Made by a program: the position numbers and the translations under genes. Shown in pieces: positions 2,110 to 57,869 of a stretch of 64,000 bases of DNA (within the stretch, counting starts at the first letter, position 1; each line of letters opens with the position of its first letter). Source of the DNA: Squalus acanthias. Lineage: Eukaryota. The notes under the pieces were generated by a model. That model made no database searches and had not been told where the DNA came from. It worked only from the letters and a program-made list of their open reading frames with translations. The stretch is from contig CM059449.1 of NCBI GenBank assembly GCA_030390025.1, positions 21,390,001 to 21,454,000 of the forward strand, given 5' to 3'.

Positions 2110-3140
2110 GATCAAACATAGTAGACATGATCAAAGGATGTAAGTGGACTCATTACTTAAGTTGGTTGCTGATGAAACATTAACTGTATTATCACAACGG
2201 AGTAAGAATTGCATTGGCCGATATGCGTCAGTGATATAACAAACAGTTCAGAAATTTTTCGGGTTTTTTCTGTTGTTCGAGAAATTTCCGAAACATTCTG
2301 AAATTACAGATTAATGATTTCTCTACAAATAGCACAAAAGTGAATAATCCTGCTTGGTTTAAGATATCACCAACAACATGGCAATCAGTGGCACTCTTAC
2401 CCCAGTATAGAAAGACGTTACCAAGGCAGAGACAATATTTGGATGTATCAGGAAACAACTATACAGAGATATAATAAGATTACCAAACGGTGAGGCCTGC
2501 TGTTACTTTATTTCAATCTATGAACGATGTGTTTTTGATTTTGTCTCGGATAAAATAAAATCTGTCCTGAAGGATTGTTTATTCTAATTCAGTGATGTGT
2601 AATGGGACAACTTCATTTAACAATTTATTTTTCAGAACCAGATGGAGGAATACACAGTTGGAATTATATATTTCTACAGCAAAAAATGCTTCTATCTATA
2701 CTTCCATATTTCTTTCTAATTGGAATTTCTTGCTTAAAAATAATACATTCGTTAATGTACCTTATGCACAGTTTCAACATAACTTTCAGAGATCCCCTGT
2801 CATTGTTCACCTTATGTCAGAATTTACACCATTGCAAGTGGGAAAAGATTCGTTATCTCTACAGGAAGGCCATGGAAGGAAGTTTCAAATATATATCTTT
2901 ATAGACAGTGGCATGAATATATTTGTGTGTTCCTGGTGGATAAATAAATAGCCCTAGATATTTATCTTTGAGGGCAGCCCGTTGTACCACTCCCAGATAT
3001 TCATTTGTACTTACTTGAATCGAATTGAATATCGTGGTGGGCGAGCGCTAAAACATGCAGCCGTTGCCATAACACCCGTTTAAAACTACTGTCCAACACG
3101 AATATCTAACGTATGTTGTTTTCCTCACTCATTGTGCTGA
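2110..3140 (+). repeat. Copy 1 of a ~1 kb tandem duplication unit carrying a 21-nt micro-exon
   Basis: Collinear similarity with 5130-6290: CATTAACTGTATTATCACA, GTCAGTGATATAACAAACA, TCTTACC, TTTTCAGAA.CAGATG, TATAGACAG, ATAAATAAATAGCCCT. Confidence 0.85.
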
Positions 3141-3559
3141 GATAATCGAAAGTTCTCCCTCTCACATATCACAGAGATTAATAAATGCAAAAAAATGGGG
3201 TAAGTTTAACTTTGGGCACTGGTGTGAAACGTGTGATATAGAATGAGCCACGCATCGAAAAGCCATCCTGATTTTTCTTTCAATTACGTTCAATGAAAGG
3301 GAAATCGGGCATGGTATATAATAGGCGCTCAATTCAATATTACCCATTTTGTATAACCGCCCAAAGGTACATTTACACACCACTGAATGTAATACAAATT
3401 GATGCCTCTTGACAGTTGCCCATTGTCCATAACTTTGGGGCTTGGGTTGGGTTACAAAGAAATATATCAATTGCGAGAAGAAAAAAGATTATGATCCATT
3501 CATTTCGCCTTTTACTATACTTGTAGACCAATGATACAACGATAATGGAGTTGTTGACA

Positions 3560-4440
3560 ATCCTATCTATCAATCTCTATCAAATAGTTTACAATAGACC
3601 CAGGCATGAGACAACAAAACTTCCAGTTGTGGATGTTTTTGCAAACCATAGGTCTAAACTCATCTGTTCCTTCCAAGCATGCCACGCTTACCGTATTCCA
3701 TGTGTCAGATTACTCGTAAACTGTATCCAAAAATACTATTTTATGAAAGTATTATATCTAATTTTCACTTGAATGCATCGATACTATCTACTTCCACCGT
3801 CTCCCTAGGAATCCTGTTCCATAGATTCCACAGTAGCTTACTGAAATAATGCATCCACGGATCAGTTTTGAATTTACCCTTTTTAATGCAGATTATATCC
3901 TCTGGTTCTGCCTTTTTGGACAAGCTGAAGCAGCTTTACATGGTCTACATTATCTTGTCACTTTACAATCATTAAAGACGGCAGTCATATCACCTCTCAA
4001 ACATTTATTTTCCAGTAAGAACATAACCAATATACATAATCGCTTTTCATAATGCGGGATACCTCCATTTCTTCAATCATTCTGGTTGCTTTCTTCTCTA
4101 TATTTTCAATAGCTCCAATATCCTTTTGTACTTTGGCAAACGGTACTACACGCAATATTCTAATTACAGTTACGCAAATGATGTATAGAGTGTTAGGATT
4201 ACGTCACTATTGCGGCTCAATAGTGACCTTTTAATATATTTGACATCTGATTTGCTTTACTTAATGTTAGCAAGCATTGCAGTGATAACTTCAATTGGTT
4301 CTCAATCAGGACCCCACACAACTTCATTTTCCATTCACATTACTCCCTTTCCATTAATGTAATAGTCCCTTCCTGGACTGTTCGTTCCCATGCGTTAGAT
4401 TTCATTTACCAACTGTCTGGCCAATTCCCAAGTATATTCC
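3560..4440 (-). mobile_element. Old, degraded CR1-type LINE 3' fragment
   Basis: Similar to the CR1 ORF2 C-terminus and 3' UTR seen elsewhere in the window (e.g. CTTGAATGCATCGATACTATCTACTTCCACC...GTTCCATAGATTCCAC). Confidence 0.5.
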
Positions 4441-5129
4441 AGTCCTCCTATGCCTTATCCTGTGTATCTTTTGAGTGTGCTTTACTTTCTCAAAGAACCG
4501 CGCACACAATAGGTGAAATGTCAGTGAAGCAGCGGGTCGACCAGCTTTAAAAGATAATTGTACCTGTGTATTTTGATAACTGACAGATTTCCACAAAAAC
4601 ATGCGTTTTGAAACCACTGGTTCCCACAATTTAATTGTTGTTTCCTTAACATTGCTATATTTCCTGGTCAGTTTCCCTCTTTAATACAACAGCAAGTATA
4701 CTGTCCCCAATGCGGTTAGACTTCTACTTCTTCTCTAATTAGTGGTGAATTCCCAGCGCTGTCTTTCCATCACAGACTGGCTGTCCCTCTAGTCCTGACC
4801 TATCACCCAGTAAAGATGAATATAATGTTTTCTACATGGCAGCAGCGGAGGGTTAGAGGGCGAAGCAAATAAAAGAGCAAGTAAATAAATAAATGTAAAT
4901 GACGGCTGATTTAATGGTTCACCAGAGCCCACTCTGCTTCCCCATGGACAAGTGTCGCTCAGATAGTTTGTAAATGAAAGAATAAAGAGCAAAGTGTGAA
5001 TGCATACTGATGGACAGTAATGTTTTAATGGAAAGGGAAACAATGCAATTAATGAGAACCAGAGTTATTGATCATTTATGCAGACGTTTCATGAAATGCC
5101 ATTAATGCAGTAAATATGCTATATTAAAT

Positions 5130-6290
5130 CTGATCAACAAGCAGAGCAAGCATGATAATAACATGAAGGTGAACTCAATAAATAAGTTGACGTTGGTGAA
5201 GCATTAACTGTATTATCACACTGGAGTAATACTTGCTTTGATGGATATGTGTCAGTGATATAACAAACATTGCAGGAAGATTTCATATTTGTATACTATT
5301 CCTGGCAAATTTGCAAAAAATATTAGAAAATAATAGAATCACGATTCCTCTAGAAATAATGCTGAAAGGAATTCTCCCGCTAGATTTATGATGTCAGCAA
5401 CATAAGGCAAACAGTGAAAATCTTACCTCAGTGTAGACAAGACGTTCTTAATATTTGAGTGATTCAGTAAACAGACATACCGAGATATAATACGATTAGC
5501 CAACTCTGGAATCTGTTACATCTCGATTTCAAACGAACAATATTTTTTTTCAACATGGACATTGCCAGTGGCAAAACAAAATTTGTCCTTAGAAATTATA
5601 CATTACGGGCACAACCTGGAGGTCAATGCTCTTGAATCAGAGAACAATCGTTTTAAAAGTTATTTTCAGAAACAGATGAGGGGACAAAAAGTAAGATTGA
5701 TATATTTCTCCAGCAAATCTTTGCTTGTCTCCGCCCGTTCATCCATCCATCCATTCAACCATCCATCCATCCATCGATCCATCCATCCATCCATCCATCC
5801 ATCCATCCATTCATCCATACATCCATCCATCCATATTTGCATCCAATTGGAATAACCAGTTAGAAATGCTTTGATTTGTTTCTGTATTTTATGCAGACTA
5901 TTTACCATAACAAACAGCGTTCCCTACTATTCCTCTTGATGGGACAAAAGTCACACCATTGCAACTGGTAGAAGGATCTAAATCACTACCTAAAGCATAT
6001 GGAAAGAAGCCTCTAATTAATTTCTCTATAGACAGCGACATGAACATTTGTATTGCTTCCTTGGAATAAATAAATAGCCCTCGAGCTCGTATTGGGCGCC
6101 GACCTCGTACGCCCACCCAATATTCAGTTGTATTGACTTCAATAGAACTGAATATTAGCTGTGGTGTAAAAGACACGGCCGGTATGGTACCAAACGTATT
6201 GGGCTAACGAACAAGCTTAACTTCTACAACACGAAATCGTCATGCGGAAATTGTCGCAGAAATGTTGCACCTCCCAACTCATTGCACATA
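5130..6290 (+). repeat. Copy 2 of the micro-exon tandem duplication unit
   Basis: Collinear with 2110-3140. Contains ttttcag|AAACAGATGAGGGGACAAAAA|gtaaga. Confidence 0.85.
5739..5833. repeat. (ATCC)n microsatellite
   Basis: Directly visible tandem ATCC. Confidence 0.97.
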
Positions 6291-7747
6291 AACTGAGTAA
6301 ACTTAAAAAGTAAACACAAAACAATTAATTAAAATAGTGGATATTTTTCAATTGGAAAAGAGGAATTTCAATCCCTTGCTGTTTTTATGTTTTCAGCAAC
6401 AGATATTAGATGATAAGAGTTAGGTAAGAGTAAATTAGTGCATCTTGTCAAGCTGCTTTGTGTTGTTTGAAACGCTGTCTGCGATTACCTGTTTCAAACA
6501 ATGGATGATTAGGAAAAATTATAAAGTGATGTAATGTCAATGCAGAATCTATACAGATACAGGTTTGCCAGTAATCAATTTCTAAAAGGATTTTTACAAC
6601 TTCTTGAATCTATAACAAACTAAGACACACCGATGGAGTAGAAATTCGTTGGACTGTAATGCGAAACTGCAGGTCTATTATACTCCCCGCCCATATTCAG
6701 TTATAGTGCCTTCAATACCGGTGCATATAATAGGCTTCGATGCCATACCGCCTGATTAGCGCTACCGGCAAAGATGCATTTCTTGCCCACTTAGTAAGCA
6801 GAAAGAGATTCCATGCAGTCATTTACTGTTCACAGAGATAATATCTTCATTAATCTATAAAATGTTTCTGCGCAAGAAACATGTTTAACCGACTACTTAC
6901 CGACTTTCATTAATCAGCAGATAACATTGTGATGTGACTGTTCCAGGTCATTTAAATAACCACTTAAAATAACATTACAGAGTCCTTGCCTGTAATTATC
7001 TCATATGCTTCCACAGCACTTACTTAGTTCCACTTGTTAATGATAAGTTCATCGCTAATGGAGGATAATTTTAACTTTGGGTGATAGTGTAAAATGGGCG
7101 CTATGGGATTGGCAACCCAATAAACACCAAGCCCCATTTTCTTTTTCATTGAAGCCAATGGCAGACAAAATTGTCCACGGCGTATAGTAGGCAGCTAACT
7201 CGCTCATGTAAAGCCTCTTGGGTCGTTTTTACTATATTAAAGGCCTCAGATAAATGCAAGATTATTTTGTTGGTGTTGCAATATACAATAACCTGAGGAC
7301 ACTTTCCCCTCCCCACTCCATTGTGTATTTCTTATTTCACCAAATTTGTCATTATGTGCAGAAGAAAAGCTCAAAGAAAAAGAAGCAGTTCAGAGAAGGC
7401 ATAACATTATAAATGTTGTCTCCTCAATTGTGCGCTTTTCCTCTTCATGGCGAAAGTGGGGTGTTGCGTGTCAGGTGGACATGTACTTCGATGACATTTA
7501 TTTTAAAAGGCTCAATGCTTCTGAAAAGTATATTAATTGCGTAGAAACATATTAAGCAATTGTACGTTACACTCTAAAAATGATGCAATGTCTTATCAGC
7601 ATGCAAATGGTTGCATGAATTGTCTTACTCCATTATTTTCATAATAAAATTCTTCAGTTGCTAAAGCTTGTCATAATTATACGGCATTTGTCACACTTCT
7701 GTGACATTGGCAAGGTCTAAGTTAATACTTGCTTACAATAGCCTATT

Positions 7748-8155
7748 TGGCGGTCGTGGCTCAGTTAATAGCGCACTCGCCCTCGAGTCAGTCCCACTCC
7801 AGAGGCTTGAGCAAGAAGTCTTGGATGACACTGGAGTGCAGTACTGTGGTAGAGGCCGTATTTCGGATGGGACATTCAACGGAGGTTACCTCTAATGTCA
7901 TAGTTGTTTCTAAATGATCCCACGGCAATACTTGGTAGTACGTCACGGGAGTGCACACATGACGTCCTGGCCAATATTTATCCCTCAACTAACAGATTAA
8001 CTGGTCATTATCTACCTGCTGTTTGTGATACCTAGATGTGCACAAGCAGGCGGCTGTATTTCTTACAGTTCAAACGTATCTCATTGATTGTAAATGACTT
8101 CGGGAGTTCCCGATTTCATGAAAGTCGCTGTATTATTGCAAATTCCTTCTTTACT
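7748..8155 (+). mobile_element. tRNA-derived Deu-domain SINE (SacSINE1/AmnSINE1-like)
   Basis: tRNA-like head GTGGCTCAGTT, Deu core GATCCCACGGCA...TCCTGGCCAATATTTATCCCTCAAC, and tail GTAAATGACTTCGGGA...TGAAAGTCGCTGTAT. Confidence 0.7.
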
Positions 8156-10221
8156 TACAATTGATAAACGCACAATGCCTGTTAGACTTGCCATTATACT
8201 TCACTGTAGGTGGTCTATTGTTTCGCCCACCACTGGAGACATCCTGGCACAAGTCACCCAGCTCCACTCATAGTTTTCTTACCTTAATCTCTGTCAACAA
8301 CTTTCTTCGCCCCCCGAAAATGGTGATGCATGATTTACTGCCATGATATCCACCGTCACTGCAGCCCCCACTGTACTTCTATAACAACCCACTGGGTGAC
8401 CAGTGGGCAGCCTGATTAAGGCGGTGCGCCCTTATAATATGCTAGGGATATACTATGTCTTTCATATGATCCGAATTACCAGTTGGCACTGCACTGAGTA
8501 GATCATACACCATGGAAGCTCCGCTGAACTTTCTTGGGACAGGGAGGAGCAGGAGTGCTGCACCGGGTTCCATAAAACTCGTTTAACCTGCTGCCGCTCC
8601 GGGTTTCCCTTCCCTGAAGATCGTAGCTCCTCCCTCCCAACACGCCTATCTACCTTCATCCGGCTTGTAGGCCAGTCGGGGTTTGCTTGTTTCCTGCCCA
8701 CAACACGCCAGCTAAATATTAATGAGGGACCAACCCGCAAAATGAACCAGAGTCCCAACAATATTATCGAGCGGCCGGCGTTCGCGCTCTCTTTGCTGCC
8801 CGCTCAAAGACCGTGCCGTAGGAATATGTACCCCAACGATTTCAGTGGCAATTAACATCTTTTAAAACTGAGCTGCAAGTGGAAATGTAGCTCTGTGGGA
8901 CTGACAATCAACTTCAGCGGAGGCGTAAAACTGACGGTAGCAGATTAGCATCAACGGAAAGGAAAGGAAAATCGGGAGGGTTAAAGCGGGATATTCTACC
9001 GGCCATTTTGTTTCCCCACCGCAGTTGGATTTCACCCAGATTTGGGTCCTGGTCAGATCTCATCCCATATCTTGCTTCGGCCAGGTTCCTATCCCTATCT
9101 AGCACTCAGCCTGCGGCTTCTCACTCACCACTGCCATACTCCTCTGTGCCAGTTCCCAACAATAAACTTTTATAGCCAACCAGTCTCTGTCCCTACCACA
9201 ATCGCATTCCACACCATACTTCACCGGGTCTTCTGCTCCAGCCCAAGTCGTGGTAATTTTCTTTCTACAGCCAGACTCCCAGCCCAATCTCAACATTCAT
9301 CCCCATTATGGAGCTGCCTCTCACCAATATGTTTTCTTTCCAGTCTGGCGTTACACTCATGTCCACTTCTACTGCATTGCACTTCATCAGTTCCTATCAC
9401 GAAGCTGTGAGCCAATAAGATATCTATGTGGGTCTCATGCTTTACAAAAGGAGTGACAGGGTGATTGCATTTGCCATCGTCTTTCGATTGTACACTCATT
9501 TAGCCGCATCCTACCTCCTCCCATTCAGTTATCTAATGTTCTAATAACAAACTACATGCCTGCTTCTGGCTCTACATTGCTACTCAGTCCACTTCCTATC
9601 TGGTCCTCACACTCGCAATGCTCTCTACCCTCCCTCATATTCACTAGCAACGCGTTGCGCAAGGTTCACCCAGTCCACTCCTACTACCACTTACCACTGT
9701 CATTAAGGTCGCAGCCCCAAACCCAACACCATCACTTACCAATGTTTTTCCCTCCTCATCCGCCACCTCCCCGCCATAGTACTACAGATCGACCACAGTC
9801 CACACAAATACGCTACATCTTCCTCTGCCCTGCATCTGTCTCATCCCCAAACGCAACCTACGCCATGCTCGTTTTGTCAATGCTCTCCAATACACTGAAA
9901 AACTGAAAAATGACAGCCCCACATCATGCATCCACCTAATTACTCCCATATCGCGTAAAAGATCAAAACTAAAAAGGGAGAATTAGCGGAAAACACAAAC
10001 AGAATGAAAAAGAAGTAACAGAACCAAAACAAAAACAAAAGACTAGACGAAGACGCCTCAGAAGCTATACATAAAGAAAACCATCACCAAAAAGAACATA
10101 GCAATTACTTCCGCTAACTTTCCATAATCAATGTCACGTACGAATCATTAGTTTACTTTAAACAGTAAAAGTGAAAATAGAGGGTGATGAAATGTCATTA
10201 GATATTTTCAGATATGTTGTT

Positions 10222-10789
10222 GGACCGGATTTTCCGATCGGAAGCTTCCTGCGTGCTTCCTGGCTCGGTAGGTCCCGACACTTCCGATCCTGGGCTGCTC
10301 GTCTTCCGCGCACGCAGAGACCCAGGTATCCCAGGGGGCATGCGGTTCTCAAGCGTCCCTGGGATCACGTGGGCCATGGGGAAACAACCAAAGAAGGAAA
10401 TTCCCCCTTCACACTTTTGACAGGTCTCTACGCATAGATCTGTCAAAAGTATGAATGGGGATCACAGTGCAAAACACAATAAAACTTTAAGTAAATTTAA
10501 CAACAACATCACGTATTTAAAATTAGCTAAAATTACTTTAAATTAAATATTTTAGAAGTAAATCTTATCTTTTAAAAAAAAATATTAAAGTTTTTTACGG
10601 GTCTAAAAATAAGCTTATCTTTTTTAAAGTAATTTAAAATTATAAATGAGTGAAAAAAAAAATTAAACTGATGCTGGTAAAAGCAGGTGTTCAGCGCAAG
10701 CGCATCACATGCCTGAAACCGTCACTTGCGCGGTCCCTACGCGTGCGTACACACCTCATACCCACCGTGGGGCTCGGAATATCCGGCTC
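10222..10789. mobile_element. Non-autonomous TIR element (MITE), same family as 60722-61486
   Basis: Imperfect TIRs GGACCGGATTTTCC and GGAATATCCGGCTC. Shares CCCTGGGATCACGTG and CTGGTAAAAGCAGG with 60722-61486. It interrupts sequence that is contiguous in the paralogous arm (~63770). Confidence 0.7.
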
Positions 10790-13560
10790 ATTGATGCAAA
10801 ACATTGGGGAAGATTATCCGTAACTTCGTCTGGAACTATTTAATCACCTGGGCGCAACAAATACAGAAAAATCAGGCAGTGCACACCCAATATCAATCAA
10901 TATATTTAAATGGGCAGAAAATAGAGTGGATTCATTGCTTGATTTCATTTATTTGCTGTTCTCAGCTGATCTCCCATCCAAAAAACATGGTTAAGATGCC
11001 TCTTTCGTAGCAGAAATGTGGTGCTGATTGTATTTAAACAATGCAATATAGATTGAAGCCTTGCCTAACAGATGCTGACTAAGGGAGTGAAAAACATTTA
11101 TAAAAGATGTTAGCTTCGCTACTGTGATATTATGCAATGCTGAATCCTTTACTCATTTTCAGGCGTCTCTGTACTATGGAAAATCTAGGTGAGGCAAACA
11201 ACAGCTTGATAGGGCCGATTAGGATAGCATTAATTACCAGTTTCATAACACTGCAATTTGCACATTTAAAATTGGCTGTGCTACTTTTCCTGTTTCTTTA
11301 TCAAAAATGCAATGGATTACCTTCGAAGTCCAATGGCATACATGTGCCAATGGACCGCCTGGTGTGATTTTGAAAGCAGACTAACCAGGAAGATTCCAGG
11401 CTCTGCAGTTTTCTCTGAGTTGAGTTAACTAATCTCAGACAGCGCGGGTTTTGAAGGCACAGTTGAAGTCAGTGTTCCCATTCGATTCTTGGACCGGAGA
11501 TTACATTTTTTTTCCATTATTGAACGTTGCTAGCAGCAACTAAAACGACAATTGGAAACTATTTATTATGATAATTTCTTGTCATTCCTGAGCAACAGAA
11601 TTTTCATTAAGTTCAGGAATTTATAAACAACATTCGCAAGGATATACTGTTATGCACAGATACATCAAAATATGTTGCTGGTGCAACTACAAAGAACATT
11701 AGATCTGTGCGTGTTAGAAATGTATCTTGTCGCATCTCTCACCTCTTATTTGCCCAAGCCAGATATTTAGTTGAATTGCAGTCAATAGATTTGAATATGA
11801 GGCGTGGCGTAGAAAAGGCCAGTGAATCCTATAATACACATTTTGAGCTACCGCCCGAGGCGAATTTCTACCCTTTTTACCCTATCACTAGTCTGACAGA
11901 CAACTACGGTGAGGATGCCAAACGAGCTGGCCAAATGGTTGGCCATTATACATCCCATCTGATTTTCATTTCCATTATAATGAATTGAAGCAAGTCGGGA
12001 GATTTGTATCATAGGCGTCTGAGCAGATGTTGCCCTTTTACAGCATTGCAAAAGTAAAAAAATACCCCACTCTGTTCATTATTTGTTTATTCCAGGATTT
12101 AGGAAAGCAATGAAGGCGAAAAGTAAGAGTTTGGATATGGAATGAATGCTCAAATGTATCTTAAGACCGAGAATTATTTTTTTGCTGGAACTAATGAAAA
12201 GGTGCTTAACGGAGGCAATAGTAACTTTAATTGACATGTGTTAAATGGATTATAGCAAATCACAGTCCGATATTCCTTTCCATGTAAATCAATAGTACAG
12301 ATAAATGAGCAGGGTGCAGAATTGGCTGCCAATTCGCTATCGCCAGTTTTTTGACGAGCAATAAAATTTCAAATGATTTCCAATGGAGGTACTTCTGACC
12401 TATAATGATAATGAAAAATGATATTAGGTCGGCCACACTTTATGCAAATCTTTTGATTTTCGTTCCATTTGATGCCAATAGAAATTAAAATCAAGAGAGC
12501 TATGCAACGGACAGCTGATCCGATATCGCCTAATTTACACGATTGCACAAACTGAAGATCTACCCCAGCACCTCCACTGATGTATTGGCAATCTTATAAG
12601 TGGGCATAAAGTCTGCTCATCCTAATTCAAATTACTGGTTAATTTAATTTAATTTATTGTAAAAGACTACTTCAAATTAGTGAGATTAGACTGTAACATA
12701 CTTCATTTGTTGCAGACATGAGAATTTTAATCAGCCATATTAACACTTCATTGAGTTTATAAGTGGGAGAAAGTTTACACACTTAAACTATTGATTATAT
12801 AGGAGCACAATTGTGCTTAGTATGTAACAGGGACTATGCATGCAAGTGGATCATAAGAAATACACATTACAGATGAGGCATGAGTGGAGATTAAACAATG
12901 TGTATATGTACTTTGAGATATGTTGATGCTAATAGAGCATGTCAGGCCATACTTAATCCAGATTCATATCTTAGCAGCCAAAACTTAAAAATATGCACGT
13001 TCAATATACTCTAGTATACCCTAGATTATCCGCGGCTAAAATGTGTTCAAATATTGGGTGTTTGTATGGTGTGAATTATGACTTTCACCGCCAAGTGGAA
13101 AACTGATGGTAGCGGATTGGCCGCCCGTTTTACACCTCGCCAGATTTTCGATTGCACGAAAGTGAATGAGTAGAAATTCATCAGTAAAAATGAAAATTCA
13201 CTCCTATATAACAGCAATGTAGCTGAAAGTAGAAGGGCAGTGGGGTAGATCTTGTTTTTGTGCGACAGTGTATAATGGGTGATAGAGAGTCGGCGGTCCA
13301 TGTTAAACCTCTTCCGACTTTTAGTCCCAGTGAAGTAAATGGAAACGAAAAATGGATGTAATATAAAATGAGCAGCCCATCCGCTACCAACCGTTTCTCC
13401 TTCCGACGATCAACATGAAAATTTACCGCTCTGTCTCCAAAATGCAGAGCAGAAAATAACTTGACCATCACCTGTCTGCAAAATAAGGGAGGAGCACAGT
13501 GCACAGATGTCACTTCTCCAGACATAAACCAACAAAGTCAAATCACCTTAGCAGATATGG

Positions 13561-13754
13561 GGGGTGAAATTAGACGTGGCCAGCAACATAAATCAGGCGG
13601 AATCGCGTTTGCCAAACGTTATCCAACGCGCCCAATATTTAGTTCTACTGATTTCAATTGAAGTCAAAGGAACAGAATATCGGGCAGGCCGGTTAACAAG
13701 CGGCAGTTGCGATTCAGCACGTTTTCCTTCACTGCAATTGTACAATTTCACCCC
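13561..13754. mobile_element. Hairpin MITE, representative of many short palindromic elements
   Basis: Perfect 11-bp TIRs GGGGTGAAATT and AATTTCACCCC; central palindrome TTCAATTGAA. A paralogous copy lies at ~60070-60256. Confidence 0.75.
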
Positions 13755-14261
13755 ATTATTATTAACTCAATTTTCAGAACTGACAGGACAAGTGTGACAA
13801 TAAGAGAGGCAGAGATAAAAAGTGTTGAAGGGCGAGAGACAAATGGAAAGAGAGCAACATATGCAGAGAGAAAGTGAGAGAGCAAAATAGAAATAGATAA
13901 AGAGACAGGGAGAATAGATATTTTATCTTTGGGCTATGGTGTAAAGTGGGTGATATCCAGTTAGCCACTCATAATACATCACGCCCGATTTTCCTTTTGA
14001 TTAGACGGGGAAGTGGGGCGGGGTGTATATTGGAAAACCAATTGGATATTTCCAACTTTACATAAATCCCAAAGTTAAACTTGCCACCAGCGAAGGAGAA
14101 ATAGAAATAAACCGTGATAAATTGGCAAAACAAGATAATGATTAAGAGGCAGGGGTTGGGTGAGAGACAGAGATGGAGAGAGGCAGAAAGCAAGAGGGAT
14201 GGACAGATAATGTAAATTTTGGTGCCAGCTAATATTGATTGATCCTTTTCTATTTCTCCAG

Positions 14262-14806
14262 TTGCTGTCAAACTCAACGAGTCGATGTCGGATTCAAGAT
14301 TCCTGATGAATGCACAGCAGATCAGTAACACATGGGGCGATGACCCCGGGAAGCCCATCAACGCTCAGAAGATGCACCTCGCCACGTTATATTTATTTGG
14401 TCATGAATGGTTCACCTCCGGAAATCATTATTAGCAGGTGCAAGTGGAGAGCGGATCTGTCTGGTTTATGGCTGCATCTGCAGGTTCGTACAGATCGAAG
14501 AAGTGGCTAAGGTCTTTGCGTAGCAGTGGATTATGGACTTTGATGCTGTAGAATGTCGGGAAAGAAAATTAATTGAGGGGGAACTTTGTCAATGCGATCA
14601 ACACTACTGGCCTGCCGAAAATCGGAACGTACCCGGACTTCCATGAAGGGACAGTGACCTTTTCTAATCCCGAAGACGATTCCATAGTCCACTCGACTGA
14701 AGGAACATTCAATGCAAGTCTTATCCTTTCTGCATGTTTTGTATTTCTGAATCAAACTAATTCCAACAATCACCATAACCTAACGTCTCCGACGTTAATT
14801 CATTAG
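14262..14806 (+). pseudogene. B30.2 (PRY/SPRY) terminal exon, left arm, disabled
   Basis: Polypyrimidine tract plus AG at 14260-14261. SPRY motifs FTSGxHY(W>*)xVxV and KIGxYxDFxEGTVTFxN. TAG, TAG and TAA in frame. Confidence 0.9.
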
Positions 14807-16574
14807 ACATATGTATACAGTGCTGTCGTCTGCCATATAGATGAGGACGGTCACCAGATTCCTTGCTTAGATTGGATTGAATTAGCCGTCATCAGCCAGC
14901 TGAGATGGACAGATTAAAAGAGACTGCTTTACCTTTGGTGCTTCCTTAGTTTTGACTGTCAGTGAAAAGTGACATCCCAATGCTGGCCGCTTGTACTTTT
15001 GTGGATCTGTCATTCTGCCCATCAGGATAAGGAATCTGGGTTTGGCAACACAAGCATGGGTGCTACATTCGTTAATCAAATGAAGATCACCAAATGTAAA
15101 AGGGTATTATAACTGGCCACATGCACCAGTGGTAGAAACGGAGAAACTCATCCAGACGTCCAAGGGTTATTTGTATGACTTGGAGAAGCATCCTTAGACC
15201 TCTGGATGATTTTCTTCTAGCTTTGTCTTTAACTATCTCCACCTCTCCGTGTATCTCTTTCCTTCTCCCATACGTTCATTGAACTGAAGCATTATAGAGT
15301 TTTGTTAATAGGGCCAATTTTTCCCCTGATACATGCAGTCGGTGAGCAGCCTCCATCACTGCCTATCTGCAAATTACAGGTGCGCAGCCAAAATATTACA
15401 CCACAAGCTCCGAAAAACAGCCAAAGCGTAGCTCTATGGAGTGACGTTTCAAAGGAAATTGTCAAGACTTACTTCAGGGAAAATAGAGTTCAACTCGATT
15501 CTAATATGTATGTACTTCAGATCTGCATTTTTAGAACGCAATACATTTAAAGATCAATAAATTATAAGAATGAAATACTTTGTTAATCAAAGCCTTCAAA
15601 AACATTGACGAAGACCCTGTAAGGCTATAGATTTTAGGCCTTACAGGATACAGTTGGAGTTATTGGTACTGAATGCTACACATGTTTATATGGCATGTCG
15701 CTGTCTTATATTTTAACGTAGGTCTTAACCCGTTTCTTATAATTTTATTAAAAAGTAGCTGACAGATGATCGACCAGTGAATGCGTTAGACGTCCTTCGA
15801 TAATATCACCGGCATTTTTGGCATTGCACAGTTATGAATGGAACTTGACGGAGGCCCTGTGGCCGGGTGCGTAGCCTACAATTTTCCGACCATTAATGTC
15901 AATAGACAGATCATTACCGGCAAGCCAGCCCTGATTTTCCAATAACTTTCCCGTTGCTTTCAATTTCTTAACAGGGGCCTCGGGAAATCTTCACCTTCTT
16001 CTCACGGGAGACTTAGATTCCTCTCAGTTATACTGGCCTTGACATTACACTGTGTGCGCATTGACATACAAATGCACTGTTATGGAATTCCTCTGTTAAT
16101 CAGTTTAGTCTACCTGTCAGGTGCCTCAGATAAGTAGCTGTCAAAGGACAACCGCATAAAAACATTAAAGGCAAATTGCACAATCAAACAGTCGCAGTGA
16201 TGAACCGCACTTGCATAGAGAATGAGTCAATGAATCACTGCAACAATGTTAATCAAATCCGCCAGTCGGGAAGCTGACTTGATCAGGTATAACGCTAATT
16301 GTAAAACCCTGCACGAATTTGTTCTCCGTTGAAGTCACTGAAGAGCAATATCAGGCGGGCGGCAAATCCAGCGCTCCGCCCGATCGTGTGGGTTTCCCGC
16401 ATGATGAGTTAGGTTAAAACAGTCGTCGCCATCTCCAACCCCTGCTGCCTGTGACCGTACTTTCCCAGTGGGATTACGGAATTGTCCCATTAGTGTTCAT
16501 ATGGTAGTATTTACAACTTATAGGCTCATGGCCTTCTGGATTTATTTTTGGATAGAATGGCAGGTCCATCCACG

Positions 16575-16746
16575 ATTGGAGTAATCAAATGCTGAAAACG
16601 AACAAAATAAATGTTGAGATCTTCCCTGCCTGAGAATTAGTATAAAAAGCGTTGTGTACCTCCAGCTCTCTTTATTTCACTCCGTCGCTGTAGCTGTAGC
16701 CCACCAGCTGTTGAGTGAGTGTGATAGTTTCAGACCTGAGATTCAG
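16575..16746 (+). promoter_or_regulatory. Putative Pol II promoter (inverted CCAAT 16575-16579, TATAAAA 16641-16647) and non-coding first exon ending at the donor 16746|GT
   Basis: The CCAAT box, a 41-bp block and TCAGACCTGAGATTCAG|GTAC are conserved in the inverted copy at 50777-50942. Confidence 0.6.
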
Positions 16747-17269
16747 GTACAAGTTTCCTTCTCGCTGTTTGATATCACATTGAACAATAAGCAGTCTATG
16801 TAGCAACACGATACAATTGCATAATTCGAGGTTTTGTATTGTGCATGAAACGAGAGCATTTAGTTCATAAATTGCTTTGTGCTTATCTTAATAAAAACTG
16901 ATTATTCCGCCTGCAAATGCGTCCTGTGTTGCAAGAAAATTTGGTTGCATGAAACGGATATGAAAGTGAAGCTTGTAGTGGAGCCCGAGCCTAAATATGA
17001 AAACTTCTCTGACATTCATCTTCTACTTTACTCTCTGTACACCAGGCACTGGTTCTGGTATTAATACAATATTGTGGCTGAACGGCTTGTTAAATGTATT
17101 CATCCACAATTCTGCTGAAACCGTTCTTATCCCTGCCTCTGGCGAACATCGGAACACAATCCGGTTGACTCCTGCTTTCATTGTGGCTTCTTCCCTGGTT
17201 CCACATTTGTAATCTTTTATGATGTCACTGATTGAAATACGAACATGCTATGTGGTGAAATATGTATAC

Positions 17270-17702
17270 AACCTGATTCTTACCATTTCATAATAACCAT
17301 CCGGCATTCAATGACAACCATATTACTATTCCATGATAATCACATTACACTGAATGGTAAACATCTTACCATCTCCTGATAACCATCTTACAATATCATG
17401 ATGACCAACTTACATGCAATAGTAACCATCTTTCCAGTTCCTGATAATCATCTTACGCTCAACGGTAAACATCTTACCATACCATGATAATCACTTTATT
17501 TTCGATGCTAGCCATATTACCATCCCATGATAACTGTCTTTAATTTGCGGGAACCATCTTTCTATACCACGATAAACATCTTACACTCAATGTTAACCAA
17601 CTTACCATCATATGATAAGCTTCTTACATTCAATGACATCAAACTTACCACTCCATAGTTATCAATTAACATTGCATGGTAATCACCTCAGAATCCATGG
17701 TA
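17270..17702 (+). repeat. Degenerate minisatellite of mostly alternating 21-bp and 22-bp units (43-bp higher-order repeat)
   Basis: Units resembling TAACCATCTTACATTCAATGG alternate with TAACCATCTTACCATCCCATGA, about 20 units. Confidence 0.85.
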
Positions 17703-18039
17703 CATAATTACATGCGTGTGTCTGTAGGATGTATCATTTCCTCTTCTTTTTCTTCATGTGACACCATGGGTTTACAAAAACATCTTTTTGTGTATTTTGA
17801 GGAATAATTTCTGTTTCTACTGCCCTCTCTGCATTGCTGAGTTCCAGCGCGAAAAAAATGATATCAACTTATTTGGAATAGGAGCACATTTTTCAGACTC
17901 AGGTCCTAATATATCTGCAGCAGACAGATGTGTGTGAAGTCTTTATCTGCTAATATCGCTAACAATACGGTCGAGGTTTATAAAGCTGAACATTAGTGTT
18001 CACCTCAGGAGTTGGAGTTCAGGGACTGCATTCGAGATC

Positions 18040-38412: not shown

Positions 38413-38707
38413 AAAGTGGTGTTCGGAGAGATGTAGGAGTCCTAGTTCATTGGGGCAAAATTCATTATCGCCCAGGAATGCGTGCTAACTTCTGAAACGT
38501 CTGCGATTTAGTGCCCGGCGCTTAGGAATCTCACTGCATGCAAAATTCAGTGTCATCGCTCAAAGAAAGGATGGGAGTGCTAAATCAAGGACTAATGACC
38601 TAACTCAGTGGCGGTAAAGTAAAAGTGCTAAGCAATTTCAGGTGCAGTCTCATCTCTAGAGATCAGTGCAACAGGCTCTTTCCATTTCTTAAAGTGCAGG
38701 TTCAAAC

Positions 38708-40680
38708 ATGCTGCAGAATCTCATTCTCAGCATTGCTGGTTCTGCAGCTGTCTCAGCAAGCAGCAGAAGGCCAAGGAGAAGAGCCGGTTCACTGAAGGAG
38801 GTGTCATTATGGCAGATCAAAGGCCCAGGGCATTGGAGGCGTTGGTCTTCGCTGTGGAGAGACGGAAGGTGGTGCTGTACCCAGCAAGTGGCAGGAGGCC
38901 CTCGCCGCAAGTCTTCCATGCCATGTGGAGGGAGGTAGACCAGCAGGTCTCGGGCAGCACTGTGGTCCCCAGGACCCACACAGTGAAGGAAGAAATTTAA
39001 CGGCATCACTTGGGTGGTCAGGTTGAGTCAATACTTCAACAAATGCTAAATACCACCTTCTGAACAACAGTCTGCAAACACTGCCCAAAGCACCACAGCC
39101 CCAGCACTCACCCACCAACAATCACCAATTATCAACACTCACACCCACATCTCACACCTTGCACACATTGACAGCTATTCAACTATGGCAGGCACATCTC
39201 CCAAAAATGCTGCTCCACACTCACTCACACACTATCCTCTCTCTTGCAAGACAAGGTCGCTCACAACAGGAAGGAGCAGGAGCGCATAGGCGTGGGACAA
39301 TTTTAGACCCAACCACATTCTGAGTTGGATGAAAGAGTGTTGCAGGTGGTGGCAGCCGTGGCCACCGGCGACGTGAACCTCTTGAGGACAACAATGGTAT
39401 TTTCATCCCCACTCCTTCTCACATCCCACTTCCCCCTCATCCCACAAGCCTTTCCCACTTTCCAGCTAATCATGCAGTATGCATGTCTTTCTCCCTCCCG
39501 ACCCCCGTTCCTCACTTTAACACGACGCCTGTACCTTTTATGGTACCCTCAGGGACAGGTTGCTCAGCTGCTTGCTGATTATCTGAAAGCATAAAGTCAA
39601 GCAGCTGGGCAGCCTGTGCCTGAGAGTACCATAGAGAGTGAGGCGGAAGAAGTTGAGGACCAAGAACACACCGCGTCACTGCATGTCTCACCCGCAGGCA
39701 ACAGCTCAGATACTGGCACTTTGCATTCTGTAGAGGCTAGTGTAGTAGCAGGATCTGCAAAGTGTGATGCACAGGGAACGAGCAGGCTGCAGCAAGACCG
39801 GGGTAAAGGGTAGGTTTGGAGTCAGGTCTCAAGAGCGCGAATTTGCGCGTGAGTTCTGCTGCACAGGACTCAGATGACGACCTCGTTGGGGAGGCCTTTA
39901 GAAGAAGGGTGATGGGCATGCACAGGGAGTTGATAGGTGCAATGTCAAGTGTGCCTGAGAGCCTCACGGCAAAGCTAAGGAGCGTGGATGAGTCCGCCTC
40001 CTTGCACAGACCTCTGCTCACACCATGGAGCACATCATTTGCAGTCTGCAAAGAATGGTGAACTCCCAGAGAAAACGTGGTGACCCAGACCTGATGCCGC
40101 GGGTGATGGGCGATGTCGCAGCTTCAATTGCAGCACAGGCAGAAGCCACATAATGTCTTATTGCAGTAATGTAATCAATGCTTGGTGCCATCGATTCTAA
40201 GACTGCTCTCCGCTTTCTCAGCTTGATGCCATGCAAGCTCTGAATGCTGCCATCGTGGCTGTGTCTCGAACAGACCTCCGGGGCTTTCACGGTGTCGCAA
40301 CAGCTTGGCAGTGATGCTGAGTTGCTTCACCGGAGGAGTGCCAGTGAGTCAGTGGAGCAGGAAGCTGCTATCCTCTCTGCGGATGACAGAATTCCTGTTC
40401 CCACCACTGGCACTCCGACATTGCCCTTGACGCTGCCTGACATCCAGCCAGCCCAGACTGCTGCCACCTATGCTGAGTGGTGCCGTCTAGAGCCGGGCCT
40501 TCAATGCCCAGTACTGGTCGAGGACGTCTTGCAAGGACATCCGAAGTCTCCCGCACGGGCACTCAGCAGTCTTCCACCCGCCGTGCTGCAGCCAGTGGCC
40601 CATTATTCGTAGGAGCACTAGAGTCGGCAAAGGCACTGTAACGAGGGGCACTAAGGGATTGCACAAGGGAGAATAGTTAA
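38708..40680 (+). pseudogene. Harbinger Myb/SANT-like DNA-binding protein gene remnant (spliced)
   Basis: RFTE...ALEALVFAVERRKVVLYP...WREV...VS...RT; donor near 39022; next exon KVAHNRKEQERIG (near 39251); acidic linker further on. Confidence 0.7.
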
Positions 40681-43829: not shown

Positions 43830-44990
43830 TTTAATTTATTGAAACCGCAGCCTGATGAGGCAGTCATGGACCGTCCTTCCAGAAGGCCGATTGAGTGGTT
43901 GCCTCCTCCCTCACTCTCTTACTCCTCCGCCTCTCCCTCTTCCTCCTCCTGAGATCATCCCACAATCTCTGGTGGCAAGTGTTGCACCCTCATGATGGCT
44001 AATTTGTGGAGCATGTGCTAGACCACGATGAAATGGGACACCCGCTTCGGCGAGTACTTGATGGCTCCTACCGTGCGGTGAAGGCAGCGGACCGTTGCTT
44101 GAGCACAGCGAAGGTATGCTCGATGATGTTCCTGGTGGCACCATGGCTCTCATTATATGAGTTCTGAGCAGAAGTGCTGGGGTTGCGGAAGGGAGTCTTT
44201 AGCCAGGTGGAGAGTGGATAGACATTGTCTCCGAATAGCCAGCCGCGAGCTTGATGTGGCACCTGGAAGCATGCTGGCAGAGCGCTCTGGCGTAGGATGA
44301 AAGCATCGTGGCTGCTGCCAGGAAAATGGTCATTCATATTGAGGATTTGCTGTCTGTGATCGCACACCAAATGCACATTAAGTGAATGGTAACCTTTGCG
44401 GTTACGAAGACCTCAGATTATTATCCAGTGCCCGCAAAGCCACGTGGGTACAGTCAATGGCGCCTTGCACCATGGGGAAGTCCGTTATCCTGGCAAAGCC
44501 ACATGTACGTTCGTTCTCGCTTCTCTCTGGTAATGCCAAAGGAAAGGCTAGCCCTTTGTCCTAATGTAGAGAGCCTCTGTGACCTCCTGGGTATACCAAC
44601 GGATGACGACTGCCAGATGTTCGCTATATCGCCTGCTGCAGACTGGAGGGAACAGCCGACGAAGAAATTGAGGCTCACGCTGACCTTGACTGCCACTGAC
44701 AGTACTGTGGTCGACCTGATATGAGGCTCGAGGTCTGGTTGCAGGAGGTGGCAAAGTTCGGTGACCACATCCTTTCTGAAGTGGAGCCTTCTAATGCACT
44801 GCTCCTCGCTTAATTGGAGGCAGGAGAAGTGCTGTTGGAATACCGCGGAGGATACGGCCTCGGTTGAGAGCCCTGATGGCCCTCCTCAACCCTGTGGACA
44901 CATTTTGCAATCTTTCCCACAGCCTCTGCTCCGTCGACAGTAGATCCTGGAGGGCGAGGTCGTCTGTCAGTAAAGCCCCCATTTTGTCAG
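43830..44990 (-). pseudogene. Harbinger (HARBI1-like) DDE transposase remnant
   Basis: VTELCHLLQPDL...LSVAVKVSVSLNFF; GAIDCTHV; LVCDHRQQIL...FPGSSHDAFILRQS...GDNVYPLSTWLKTP...YNESHGATRNIIEHTFAVLKQR. Confidence 0.92.
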
Positions 44991-47340: not shown

Positions 47341-47664
47341 TATAGCTGCCCTGCATGTATATGATCAAACCAATATATTTGAGCAAATCTTGCACAAAAG
47401 TTAATTAAAAGAGCTAAAATACTTCCGGATTCTATTGCATATATAGTCGTACCAGAGTTTGAAATGTGTGCTCCCATTTCAAGCCCATGGACTGACTCTG
47501 CGTTTCTTAGGATCGCGCTGCAACTCAAAAATGCAGAGTACAGCAGAAACAGAAAAAAATACTCAATTCACGCAAAAGGATTATGTTATAAACCCTTGGT
47601 AACACATTAAGAAATGTAAGAGGAAATGACAGATCGTAGAGACACTCGCGTGTACGTATGTGCC

Positions 47665-48065
47665 ATGGAATGTGAAGTGATTACCATGGAATGTTCAGCG
47701 ACTATTATGGAATGATAGGGTGGTTATCATTGAATCTGAGGTGGTTAGCATGAGAAGGTAAAATGGTTATCATTGGATGCAAGATGGTTACCATTGAATA
47801 TAAAATATTTGTTTAGCGATGGCAAGACGGGTATCATTCAGTATAACATGCGTATCAAGAGATTGTACGATGGTTATCATTGAAAGCAAGTTGTTTGTCT
47901 TGGGATGGTAAGATTATCATTGAAATTAAGATGTTTATCCTCAGATGGTCAGATTGTTTTCATTGAATGTAGGATGATTCTTATGAGCTAGTTATAATTA
48001 GGTGTAAGATGATTATCGGGCGATGTTAAGATGGTTGTCATTTATTGTAGGATGGTTATCATGAG
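47665..48065 (-). repeat. Inverted copy of the 21+22 bp minisatellite
   Basis: Repeats of (G)TAAGATGGTTATCATTGAAT / ATGGTTATCATG. Confidence 0.85.
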
Positions 48066-48377
48066 ATAGAAAGCTGCAGGTTGTATTCCCATTTCACCAC
48101 ACAGGAATTTCGTCACTCAATCAGTGAGATCATAAACGTTTCCAAATGTGGACCCTTGGAAAGAGCCACAATCAGAGTATAAGTCAGCTGAGTTGTGTCA
48201 GCATGTTCCTCAGAGCCAGGTCTAGGAACGGTTACAGCAAAAATGTGGAGGAGCTAAATTGATCAGCCAATTAGCCAAAAGATTGTTTAAACATTATGGC
48301 TCAGATTTTGTGGTAAAGATAACAGTGAGGCTATCAGTGTTCACCGTTATTAAAGTCTAAATTGGACTGCAACTTGG

Positions 48378-49316
48378 CAGTGTCCTAGGCCCAACCATCT
48401 TCAGCTACTTCATCAATGACCTTCCCTCCAACATAAGGTCAGAAATGGGGATATTCGCTGAAGACTGCAGTGTTCAGCGCCATTCACAACTCCTCAGTTA
48501 ATGAAGCAGTCCATGCCAGAAAGCAACAAAACTTGGACGATGTTCAGGCCTTTGCTGAAAAGTGGCAGGTAATATTCGCGCCACAGAAGTGCGAGGCAAT
48601 AACTATCTCCAACAAGCGAGAGTCTAACCACCGCCCCTTGACAGTCAATGGCATTACCATCGCCGAATCCCCCACCATCAAAATCCTGTGGTTACCATTT
48701 ACCAGAAACTTAACTGGACAAGCCACATAAGTACTGTGGCAACAAGAGCAGGTCAAAGGCTAGGTGTAATGCGGCGAGTGTCTCACTTCCTGACACCCCA
48801 AAGCCTTTCTACCGTCTGCAAGGCCTGGATGAGTGCAGCTCCAACAGCACTCAAGAAGCTCGACACTATCCAGGACAAAGCAGCCCGTTTGATTGACACC
48901 CCATCTACCACCTTAAAGATTCACTTCTCTCCATCACTGGTGTGCCGTGGCTGCAGTGTGTACCATCTACAAGGTGCACTGTAGCATCTCGCCAAGGCTT
49001 CTTCAGCAGCACCTCCCAAAACCGCGACCTTTTCCACCTAGAAGGAGTAGGGCTGCAGGCGCATGGGAACACCACCTCCAAGTTCCCCTCCAAGTCACAC
49101 ACCATCCTGACTTAGAACTTTATCGCTGATCCTTCACCGTCGCTGGTTCAGAATCCTGGAACTCCCTACCTAACAGCACTTTGGTAGTACCTTCACCAGA
49201 CAGTCCGCAGCGGTTCAAGCAGGCGGCTCACCACCACCTTCTCAAGGACAATTAGGGATGGGCAATACATGCTGTCCTGCCAGCGACGTCCACATCCCAT
49301 GAACGAATAAAAAAAA
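48378..49316 (+). mobile_element. 5'-truncated LINE of the 40783-43760 family
   Basis: SVLGPTIFSYFINDLP...IFAEDC; WMSAAPTALKKLDTIQDKAARLI; 3' end CACATCCCATGAACGAATAAAAAAAA. Confidence 0.9.
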
Positions 49317-50776
49317 CTTCCGGCGACTGCACATGCGCAGTTACACATGGAAATCAGGACAGCTGACTTCAGATTTACCTTGCTCCCAGGCTATAACAGT
49401 ATCCCTCCCAGAGGCTTGGCATTTAAAAGCATGGAACGCTTTCATTTTCTGTTGTTACCTGATAGATATACACTAAATTCGACGGAAATGCCAGGATTTG
49501 TGCATTCTAGAGTAAATACATTTTTAACGGTGTGATACCTCTTAATTACTTTCACGCAACCTCTCTGTCACTGAAAAATAACTTTTACGTGTGTGGAGTC
49601 TCATTCCTTTAGTTTTTGATTAATGTTGGTGATTGAAAAAAACATGTGAATAAATCATTTTTTTCTTTTTCTTTCTGTCACTTTTATCTCTCTTAATCCT
49701 TTTATTCTTTTCCTCTCTTTATTTTGCTTTCTGTACAGATTGGCAATGAATTGCCCAAGAATTTGCGGCAGTTGTGATGGCGAGTCTCTCAGTGCTTGCC
49801 ATTATTACTGGATAAACCTGACTACTTCTGGCGTTCGCACGTGTGCAGTTAAACCCGGTAATCTGGAAGGTCCTGTCAGAGTTACCCTGCTCCTCCATAG
49901 GGTACACTGATGCCGTCTTCGCAGAATCAATACAACAATAAATGTTAAGGCATGAAGTTGAATTATTTACACACTATTCTGTCCCTAAATACAAACGAAA
50001 AAATTAAGCCTTTCTTCAATCCGAGGTAATTGATATTTTAACTGCATACTAAGTAATAATTACTGCTGAAAAACCTCGCTGGCCCAGAAAAAAATAATTT
50101 TACATGGAGTCTCATTCCCTCAGTAGAAAATTTAAAAATTTCTGCTTTTTAGAAATATAAAAACATATTTTTTAAACGTTTGTGTTTAGCTATTTAAGAT
50201 TATCACTAAATCCCAAGTATATGTCCCAATCTTTATTTTGCTTTCTCTACAATGATTTTAACTTAAATTGTGCAATCTGATTGCTTGATAAGCCTCCCTG
50301 CTGCATGCCCTGTTGCTTGACGCCACAGATCCCCTGCAGAATGCGCCGAATTCAAGCTGACCATGTAAAAGACGAAGTCTGCGCTCTGCAACCTCCTAAA
50401 ACTTGGTGGGCAGCTTTCTTCTAGGTGTACGGCGAGCGCTAGTGGCTGCAACATCTGGCATGATAACCATGGCCTGGTATACAGGGACTAAAAGATACAT
50501 TTAATTTAAGATAAATGTTCAGACATTCAGGCTGGCCTGCACCACGAGCTTTACTTTCATGTTAATTTCCTCCTAACCGGCCTCGTATGTAACACAGGAC
50601 GCATTTGTAGGAGGAACAAAGCAGTTTTTATTGAGACAAGCACAAAGCAAATTGATCAACTGAATGCACTCGTTTCATGCACAGTATACAACCTAGTACT
50701 ATGCAAACACAGAGTTTTGTTACACAGAATGCACATTGATCAGTGTGACATTAAACAGCAAGGCTCAGACATGTAC

Positions 50777-50942
50777 CTGAATCTCAGGTCTGACACTATC
50801 ACATTCACTGAGCAGCTGCTACGCTACAGCTATAGCGACACAGGGAAACAAAGGGAGGGAGGTGCAAAGCATTTTTAACTAATTCTCAGGCAGGGAAGAT
50901 CTCAACATTTATTTTGTTAAATGGCATGTTTCGTCGACCAAT
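50777..50942 (-). promoter_or_regulatory. Paralogous putative promoter and first exon, right arm
   Basis: CCAAT at 50938-50942, the 41-bp block at 50878-50918 identical to 16601-16641, TATA decayed to TTAAAAA, donor ATTCAG|GTAC at 50777. Confidence 0.55.
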
Positions 50943-51949
50943 TGTGGATGGGCCCTGCCTTTCTTTCCCTGAATAAAACCAGAAGCCCTTGAGGCTGCAA
51001 GGTGTGAATATTACCACATGAACACATATGGGCAACTACGTGTGCTCAGTGGGAACCTATGGATACAGACAGCAGGGATTGGAGCTAAGGGTATCGTTTT
51101 AACGTAAATCGCCAGGCAGGAAACCCGCGGAATCCAGTGGTTCTACGCCTCACCCAATATTACTCTCCACTGATTTCAATAGAGATTTAAATCGGGTTGT
51201 GTGTAAACCTATCGTCACATGGTGGGTAAAGTTAAAGTTACCACATGGGGGTCTCCACTGGGACTCTTGGATTTTGCAAATAGGCTTCTTAATGAATTCG
51301 TGTGGATATCCTTAGACTGCTATTAACGTGAGTTACCTTTACAGTGCAGTAAGCAGTTTAACAGAGGAAGTCCATACAAGTGCGTTTGTACACCAATACA
51401 CACACATAGTTATTCCATACCTTACTTAATTGTCATAGGTGCAATTGAGCATAATCGAAGTCTTCTTTCAGAAGAAGATTGGAGTTTGCAAGCGGACCAT
51501 GGTGAGGACTTTTAGGCAATAGGCGAATAACTAGAAAATCATGATTAGATTGCAAAAAAAATAGTGTATTGATATTACTTAAAGGAAAATTGTAGGCAAC
51601 GCACCCGGTCATAGAGCTTCAGAAGCCTCCACGTTATATCTGTATTATGCACAAACGTTGGTGATATAATCAAAGGACGCCTAACACATTTACAGAATGT
51701 TTCTGCATCTGCCTAAAAAAAGCAAAAAAGCGAGTTAGGACCTGTGCTAAAATAGCATACACGGGAATTACTTATGAACATGCATTGTATTACGTGCGAA
51801 TATCAACAACTGTCTAATTTAAAGTCTAAAATCTAGAGTCTTACAGGACCGGCGTCAATATTTTCTGGAGCCTTTGGTTAACAATATTTCAATCTGCAAT
51901 TTGTTTGTCCATTTAACGTATTAGGTTCTAAATGCTCAGATATGAAGTA

Positions 51950-57610: not shown

Positions 57611-57869
57611 CATTCTATCGGGCGTAGTGTATTATGTGCAGCTAATTGTATATCGTCCACTTTGCACCATAGCCAACGTTAAGACAACTCCCTCTGTCTT
57701 TTCCTTTTTATTCCGTATGGCTCTCTCGATTTCTCTAATAGAATAATAGAAATTAACGACACCGAAGGAAGCCTTTAAGACCATCTTAGTTGTGCAGCCA
57801 AAAAGAACTATCAGGCGAATCGCACTCTGCAGCTTTTGGTACGTAGCCTTGCAGGTTACAGCACTTCAA

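Follow-up and report, generated by a model that had tools for sequence, protein, structure and literature searches.

We analysed 64,000 nucleotides (nt) of Squalus acanthias DNA (C26:21390001–21454000; the window), which takes in the 3′ end of a gene that we call copy A. An initial annotation had described AG...GT-bounded exons of 21–27 nt leading to a PRY/SPRY (B30.2) exon, and had read them as the cytoplasmic half of a butyrophilin-like receptor. The observation of small exons was confirmed. Six on the forward strand align, splice sites and flanks included, to exons of a paralogue, copy B, which lies 1.8 Mb away on the same contig and has an intact B30.2 exon.

In the window, copy A first shows two phase 1 micro-exons of 21 nt, which form a local duplication (repeat family D17). 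The first (2636–2656, +), aligned to the 21-nt exons of copy B, has a donor decayed to GTTGGA; the second (5670–5690, +) is intact, with a weak acceptor that is likewise weak in copy B. The 27-nt exon at 6397–6423 (+) contains two in-frame stops (6411–6416), at which the reading frame of copy A likely ends. It is followed by a 27-nt exon that has lost its donor GT (7362–7388, +) and by one of 26 nt (11163–11188, +), a base short of the 27 nt seen in paralogues and homologous to a nine-residue exon that separates the bamboo shark RefSeq isoforms X1 and X2. The last micro-exon, 27 nt encoding GFRKAMKAK (12096–12122, +), is intact; homologous peptides precede B30.2 in the related proteins P0006 and P0174. 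The B30.2 domain itself occupies one exon (14262–14806, +) with stops at codons 58, 97 and 104. Its assignment as PRY/SPRY was correct, as it matches the B30.2 domain of BTN3A1 (E = 1.3e-10); on its own, the exon gave no Pfam match. The initial annotation had recorded stops and passed over the damage to four of the six micro-exons. Two further segments, 10211–10237 and 10966–10989, were rejected as micro-exons, having neither a homologue nor usable splice sites.

Searching the 3.7-Gb genome with DNA, we found three paralogous B30.2 exons, all on the window's contig. That of copy B (C26:23226026) is intact, encodes 173 amino acids and is 56% identical to the window's B30.2 domain. That of copy D (C26:22164372) is broken by a frameshift, and that of copy C lies tail to tail with copy A inside the window (53149–53642, −) and carries stops and frameshifts. 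Copy C also has an open last micro-exon of 27 nt (62147–62173, −) and one of 25 nt, a damaged 27-nt exon (63252–63276, −). A fifth, more distant B30.2 exon, T (20259373), is intact and 37% identical. Copies A and B are collinear over at least 150 kb. Copies B and D stand head to head, mirrored around a point about 10 kb above each head exon, and the genes span 499 kb (A), 463 kb (B), 670 kb (C) and 578 kb (D).

Copies A and C form an inverted duplication, tail to tail (window 10992–17919, +, and 47436–63446, −; approximately 70% identical), and a 43-nt tandem repeat lies 3′ of the B30.2 exon in both. The window also holds remnants that we take to resemble Harbinger-type transposon genes (1–629, 38632–39000 and 44068–44885) and many fragments of long interspersed nuclear elements (18.5–21.7, 30–33, 41–43 and 54–59 kb).

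Micro-exon chain and head exon

Upstream of the copy B B30.2 exon, phase 1 micro-exons continue for about 455 kb with no larger coding exon among them. They are mostly 27 and 36 nt long, as against the 21 and 27 nt first reported. Under fixed splice-score thresholds and no frame filter, 27/36-nt candidates numbered 69 in sense (67 open) versus 11 in antisense (7 open) in copy B, 21 versus 1 in the last 214 kb of copy A, with a 200-kb control giving 4 and 0; the chain thus exceeds chance. A looser, filtered set for copy B, which includes some false exons and misses weak ones (for example, two 21-nt exons), comprises 108 exons (61 of 27 nt, 27 of 36 nt, 10 of 24 nt and 10 others; three of the 108 are 21 nt long) and yields 1,036 residues. 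The predicted chain is 16% Lys, 16% Glu and 14% Leu. Its hydrophobic period peaks at 3.5 residues (0.43, compared with 0.26 ± 0.04 in shuffled exon order; 0 of 200 shuffles reached this value), and it contains no transmembrane-like window, the highest 19-residue hydropathy being 1.09. A 36-nt and a 27-nt exon together make three heptads, and the commonest succession in the chain is 27–27. Copy B is therefore predicted, from its DNA, to encode a coiled coil of about 1,000 residues plus a B30.2 domain, spelled by about 108 candidate exons over 463 kb. Three read runs placed on copy B covered repeats and not the B30.2 exon, gave no splice joints and are neutral here. A 30-nt segment with strong splice-like signals, part of a small repeat, mimics a micro-exon; being present on both strands, it was rejected as an exon and treated as a mobile element.

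In copy A, the chain can be followed back to a head exon of 132 nt, some 484 kb upstream of the window. The corresponding exon at the start of the copy B chain has an ATG in good context and encodes a hydrophilic, acidic peptide with DEYINI, QVYDGE and KYKSM. The copies of this exon, four open and one broken, all lie on the window's contig, with ratios of non-synonymous to synonymous substitution (dN/dS) of 0.21–0.62. About 1.3 kb above it, a donor conserved in five of five copies closes a conserved block that lacks one kept frame and is probably an exon of the 5′ untranslated region; the block contains a short upstream open reading frame whose ATG is conserved in all five. Among hydrophobic open stretches above the heads, none within an exon was common to all copies. 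An IgV-like stretch 2.3 kb above the copy B head was discarded, as it scores at chance level (E = 0.69) and is missing from the other four copies.

Directly above the copy A head lies a further series of forward-strand micro-exons, chain E (20331342–20860097), in which 80 of 80 candidates of 27 or 36 nt are open. It has no B30.2 exon of its own and no intron collinearity with copy B or T, and represents either a paralogue without B30.2 or the actual 5′ part of copy A. In the stretches examined, neither chain E nor chain T yielded a head. Within chain E, C26:20455000–20530000 holds 25 near-identical 36-nt exons, mostly spaced every 2.1–2.6 kb; the repeat has no 27-nt partner in one unit examined, and its 12-residue period breaks the heptad pattern.

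Two exon patterns of the chain recur at 35 and 23 places in the genome, versus 1 and 0 for the reversed patterns, and all of these places fall into three clusters, on C26, C30 and C1. C1:102078542–102437088 and C30:8.4–13.4 Mb hold clusters of the same 36-nt exon type. At C30:9600000–9810000, the 3′ end alone of a family gene recurs in tandem, as a B30.2 exon and a 27-nt exon (DYIPLYETP); we rejected these as compact genes displaying a head, as they are tandem 3′ ends with no rod chain.

Relatives in cartilaginous fish

The initial annotation had placed the DNA in a probable cartilaginous fish, and the closest named relatives are indeed shark, ray and chimaera proteins. The catshark RefSeq protein XP_038671249.1 (945 amino acids) is 55% identical in the B30.2 domain by profile search, and SPRY is its sole Pfam family over the cut-off. 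Aligned with the copy B chain, it is 39% identical over 687 columns, with a score of 730. This exceeds every score obtained with shuffled exon order (200 shuffles; 425 ± 29, at most 544); the catshark model thus joins homologous exons in the same order. Single-exon mapping gave 55 matches among the 108 exons at 55% identity, versus 30 on the reversed protein. The best ungapped matches of single exons did not recover the exon order (Spearman 0.15, p = 0.13), owing to the similarity of the repeats, and were set aside, as was a short-word tblastn search with the bamboo shark model, which returned only noise outside B30.2.

To the same family, by coiled-coil peptides and this type of B30.2 domain, belong XP_038671249.1, XP_043533988.1/89.1, XP_069775384.1–90.1 and XP_042191566.1–68.1. 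The isoforms of these models differ by few residues, as single micro-exons would, and the nine residues that distinguish bamboo shark X1 from X2 correspond to the window's exon at 11163. These automatic models are 5′-incomplete and are named after BTN1A1, A33 or TRIM39/58 from similarity only. Look-alike clusters in the Atlas (1,277 and 1,579 amino acids) have SPRY/PRY and no Ig or RING family. The presence of the family in sharks, rays and a chimaera indicates that it is old.

In trees of 31 B30.2 domains, unrooted and drawn from our own matches, a long branch (support 100) sets the 14 family members apart from the domains of butyrophilins (5) and TRIM proteins (12). The family clade takes in ray and chimaera proteins and does not group with butyrophilin domains, which are intermixed with those of TRIM proteins. 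A predicted model of the copy B B30.2 domain (predicted local distance difference test score of 68) matches BTN3 and TRIM B30.2 structures equally. Residues W350-H351-Y352 of BTN3A1 align to G-S-W; according to PMC7348870, this histidine is key to phosphoantigen sensing.

The open-access literature searched, which excluded supplements whose gene tables could list these loci, contains no description of the family. PMC12841164 reports conventional butyrophilins in cartilaginous fish and, in the parts consulted, does not mention this family; passages of PMC11788884 add nothing further on it.

State of copy A and alternative readings

Among exons of copy A homologous to those of copy B, 22 of 23 are intact upstream compared with 1 of 4 in the window (Fisher p = 0.005). 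Copy A has therefore likely lost its B30.2 end only. Under simulated neutral change, 48–64% of exons stayed intact, so that a count of 22 of 23 would be improbable (P ≤ 5e-4). In the first 100 kb of copy D, 23 of 24 exons are retained (the single exception proved intact in a separate check), and so are the last two micro-exons of this copy. Taking the exon states of A, C and D together, three of four copies have thus lost B30.2 and at least two have kept the rod, and copy A likely still encodes a rod without B30.2, surviving in shortened form. On balance, we consider it probable that the window holds the 3′ end, now decayed, of a gene from a set of four half-megabase paralogues, whose intact member is predicted to be a soluble head–rod–B30.2 protein.

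Several points weigh against this interpretation. The intactness count leaves out 270 kb of the gene's middle, and narrower flanks give 20 of 22 intact exons upstream. Values of dN/dS do not separate the parts of copy A (0.58 upstream, 205 codons; 0.64 in the window, 24 codons; 0.56 in the broken B30.2 domain). No terminal exon was identified for copy A, and a stop in an internal exon may trigger nonsense-mediated decay. The head exon could be internal, as 132 nt is a multiple of three and the frame is open from the acceptor; its peptide matched nothing in the protein collection, Pfam or the Atlas. XP_038671249.1 lacks the first 20 or so exons and the head. The 108-exon filter required open, charged peptides, so that the set is stop-free by construction, and the splice junctions in S. 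acanthias are predictions from DNA. Finally, chain E sits directly above copy A, and the upstream scan left out the 59 kb before it.

It is unlikely, if conceivable, that the family is as described and copy A is wholly dead: its B30.2 end would have gone first and the remainder recently, or its transcript would be lost to nonsense-mediated decay. The stops in an internal exon, the lost donor, the frameshift and the three B30.2 stops all fit such a history, as do the missing terminal exon and the similar dN/dS of broken and unbroken parts. By contrast, the head exon is intact, as are 22 of 23 exons upstream, many more than expected under neutrality, and copies C and D have lost B30.2 too, yet the first 100 kb of D retain 23 of 24 exons.

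A membrane receptor of the butyrophilin or BG kind with a huge tail is slightly less probable again. Its divergent Ig (immunoglobulin) and transmembrane exons would lie far upstream, possibly in the 59-kb gap before chain E, which could hold a receptor head; chain E and copy A would be one gene of more than 1 Mb, and copies B–D would be 5′-truncated. Such a gene would explain why chain E has no B30.2 and why the heads of E and T were not found, and the tyrosine motifs would suit a receptor tail. The best PDB matches are BTN3A1/A3, and a true shark butyrophilin (C26:7.12–7.18 Mb) likewise has phase 1 exons before a single B30.2 exon: its signal, IgV and IgC exons are followed by exons of 33, 27 and 27 nt and then B30.2. 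Our family shares these short phase 1 heptad exons and the C-terminal B30.2 domain, intact in copy B and broken in the window.

Searches for the remaining parts of a receptor argue against it. When 1.669 Mb around the locus was searched in six frames, the lowest E values were 1 with an IgV profile, 9.7 with IgC and 0.44 with RING/B-box. The Ig control gene was itself in the profile, so this control gives no measure of sensitivity; the RING/B-box profile was built from 11 fish TRIM N termini, with no positive control locus. Across the genome, Pfam PF22705 gave 79 matches (150 of 175 candidates scored) and a shark butyrophilin IgV exon 116 (150 of 185). On C26, the matches of both searches form a cluster at 0–7.6 Mb, the true butyrophilin cluster of this chromosome, plus a single gene at 31.58 Mb; between 7.6 and 31.5 Mb, no IgV or IgC of butyrophilin type matched among the candidates scored. 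A general V-set genome search was saturated, with 150 of 2831 candidates scored. No extracellular IgV (or IgC) exon was found in the 1.669 Mb or by the genome searches near the locus, a scope outside which lie the 59 kb before chain E and the 270 kb of the gene's middle, and neither the copy B chain nor the DNA above the heads showed a signal peptide or transmembrane exon. Copy B, the sole copy with an intact B30.2, has about 10 kb of room upstream, and none of seven database models, 5′-incomplete as they are, has a window of transmembrane strength before B30.2 (maximum 1.52). Where the initial annotation had placed Ig and transmembrane exons, upstream, there are about 0.5 Mb more of micro-exons and a hydrophilic head exon. 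Its butyrophilin/BG-type reading thus survives for the phase 1 coiled-coil micro-exons feeding B30.2 and is not supported for the receptor architecture; the supposed cytoplasmic half of a receptor is a decayed gene end, with a B30.2 domain that groups apart from those of shark butyrophilins. Of 50 matches to MHC (major histocompatibility complex) class I, 16 are class I-like alpha-2 exons on the window's contig, at 30.7–38.4 Mb, 9–17 Mb away. These 16 cover the alpha-2 half of the profile only, and the best class I matches lie on unplaced contigs.

A TRIM-derived gene, with RING/B-box exons upstream or lost and an expanded TRIM coiled coil as its rod, is very improbable: the contig is rich in TRIM-like B30.2 exons, several members are named TRIM39-like or zinc-binding protein A33-like, and many mammalian TRIM genes have one 27-nt exon before B30.2, but the 1.669 Mb hold no RING or B-box match (bearing out the earlier exclusion of a RING-type TRIM gene), the named models carry PRY/SPRY only, the family clade stands apart from all 12 TRIM sequences, and TRIM coiled coils are not known to be made of dozens of symmetric micro-exons. 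Among TRIM-like loci, a 27-nt exon lay within 1.5 kb of B30.2 in 1 of 10, and that locus is in the butyrophilin cluster.

Proposed design and comparison with known systems

Returning to the soluble head–rod–B30.2 protein, its intact form would begin with a short, acidic head and end in a B30.2 domain at the C terminus, the two being joined by a coiled-coil rod that about 100 exons of 27/36 nt encode and that has about 1,000 residues. Pairing of two chains would give a coiled coil, up to about 150 nm long if continuous, whose two ligand-binding B30.2 domains would lie far away from the head, where DEYINI and KYKSM could recruit signalling proteins. The B30.2 ligand would more likely be a protein than a phosphoantigen. 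Tandem duplication or skipping of symmetric phase 1 exons would tune rod length in frame, and A, C, D and chain E, which lack B30.2, would serve as partners or decoys, like BTN3A2 or the soluble chicken BG tail.

More tentatively, these genes may represent a family, so far undescribed and spread across chondrichthyans, of giant 'butyrophilin tails' without a receptor: soluble rods longer than 1,000 residues, of a length set by 27/36-nt exons, comprising one B30.2 sensor chain and paralogues that independently shed B30.2 with the rod under selection, and a head that signals through tyrosine motifs. If so, this would be a third design for presenting B30.2, beside butyrophilins and TRIM proteins, and would bear on how butyrophilin heptad exons and the tails of chicken BG arose. 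That copies repeatedly lost B30.2 yet kept the rod would be a testable parallel to BTN3A2 and BG. Genes of 0.5–0.7 Mb made almost wholly of micro-exons are also prone to being truncated and misnamed by automatic annotation.

Like TRIM-B30.2 proteins (TRIM39/A33-like), the predicted protein is cytosolic and has a coiled coil followed by B30.2, and the genes cluster on the same contig; unlike them, it has no RING or B-box in the DNA searched, a different exon layout and a separate B30.2 clade.

With butyrophilins (human BTN3A1/A2/A3 and the shark cluster at C26:0–7.6 Mb), the family shares phase 1 exons of 21–33 nt running into one B30.2 exon, the B30.2 fold and, in the shark, the chromosome. 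Each also includes a paralogue without B30.2, among the butyrophilins BTN3A2 (PMC6790196). The family differs in its separate B30.2 clade, in the replaced phosphoantigen histidine of BTN3A1, in having no IgV, IgC, signal or transmembrane exon that we could find, and in scale, with about 100 rod exons over 460–670 kb compared with about three over some 20 kb.

Ig and transmembrane domains are required of a butyrophilin, and BG proteins are marked by IgV, a transmembrane segment and 21-nt exons (PMC4046983, PMC8813856); as the family shows neither set of features, we did not file it under either. Chicken BG has IgV and a transmembrane segment, 27–38 exons of 21 nt and no B30.2, whereas our family has no IgV or transmembrane segment in the DNA searched, mostly 27/36-nt exons, roughly three times as many, and B30.2 (copies B and T). 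The likeness lies in the tail. According to PMC5938342, PMC8813856 and PMC4046983, chicken BG builds a long coiled coil exon by exon from split-codon micro-exons whose number varies between genes, and the first two of these describe a soluble BG tail, the 'zipper protein', that displaces tropomyosin. The coiled coil of the shark family is also built from micro-exons, its tail being made in the same way.

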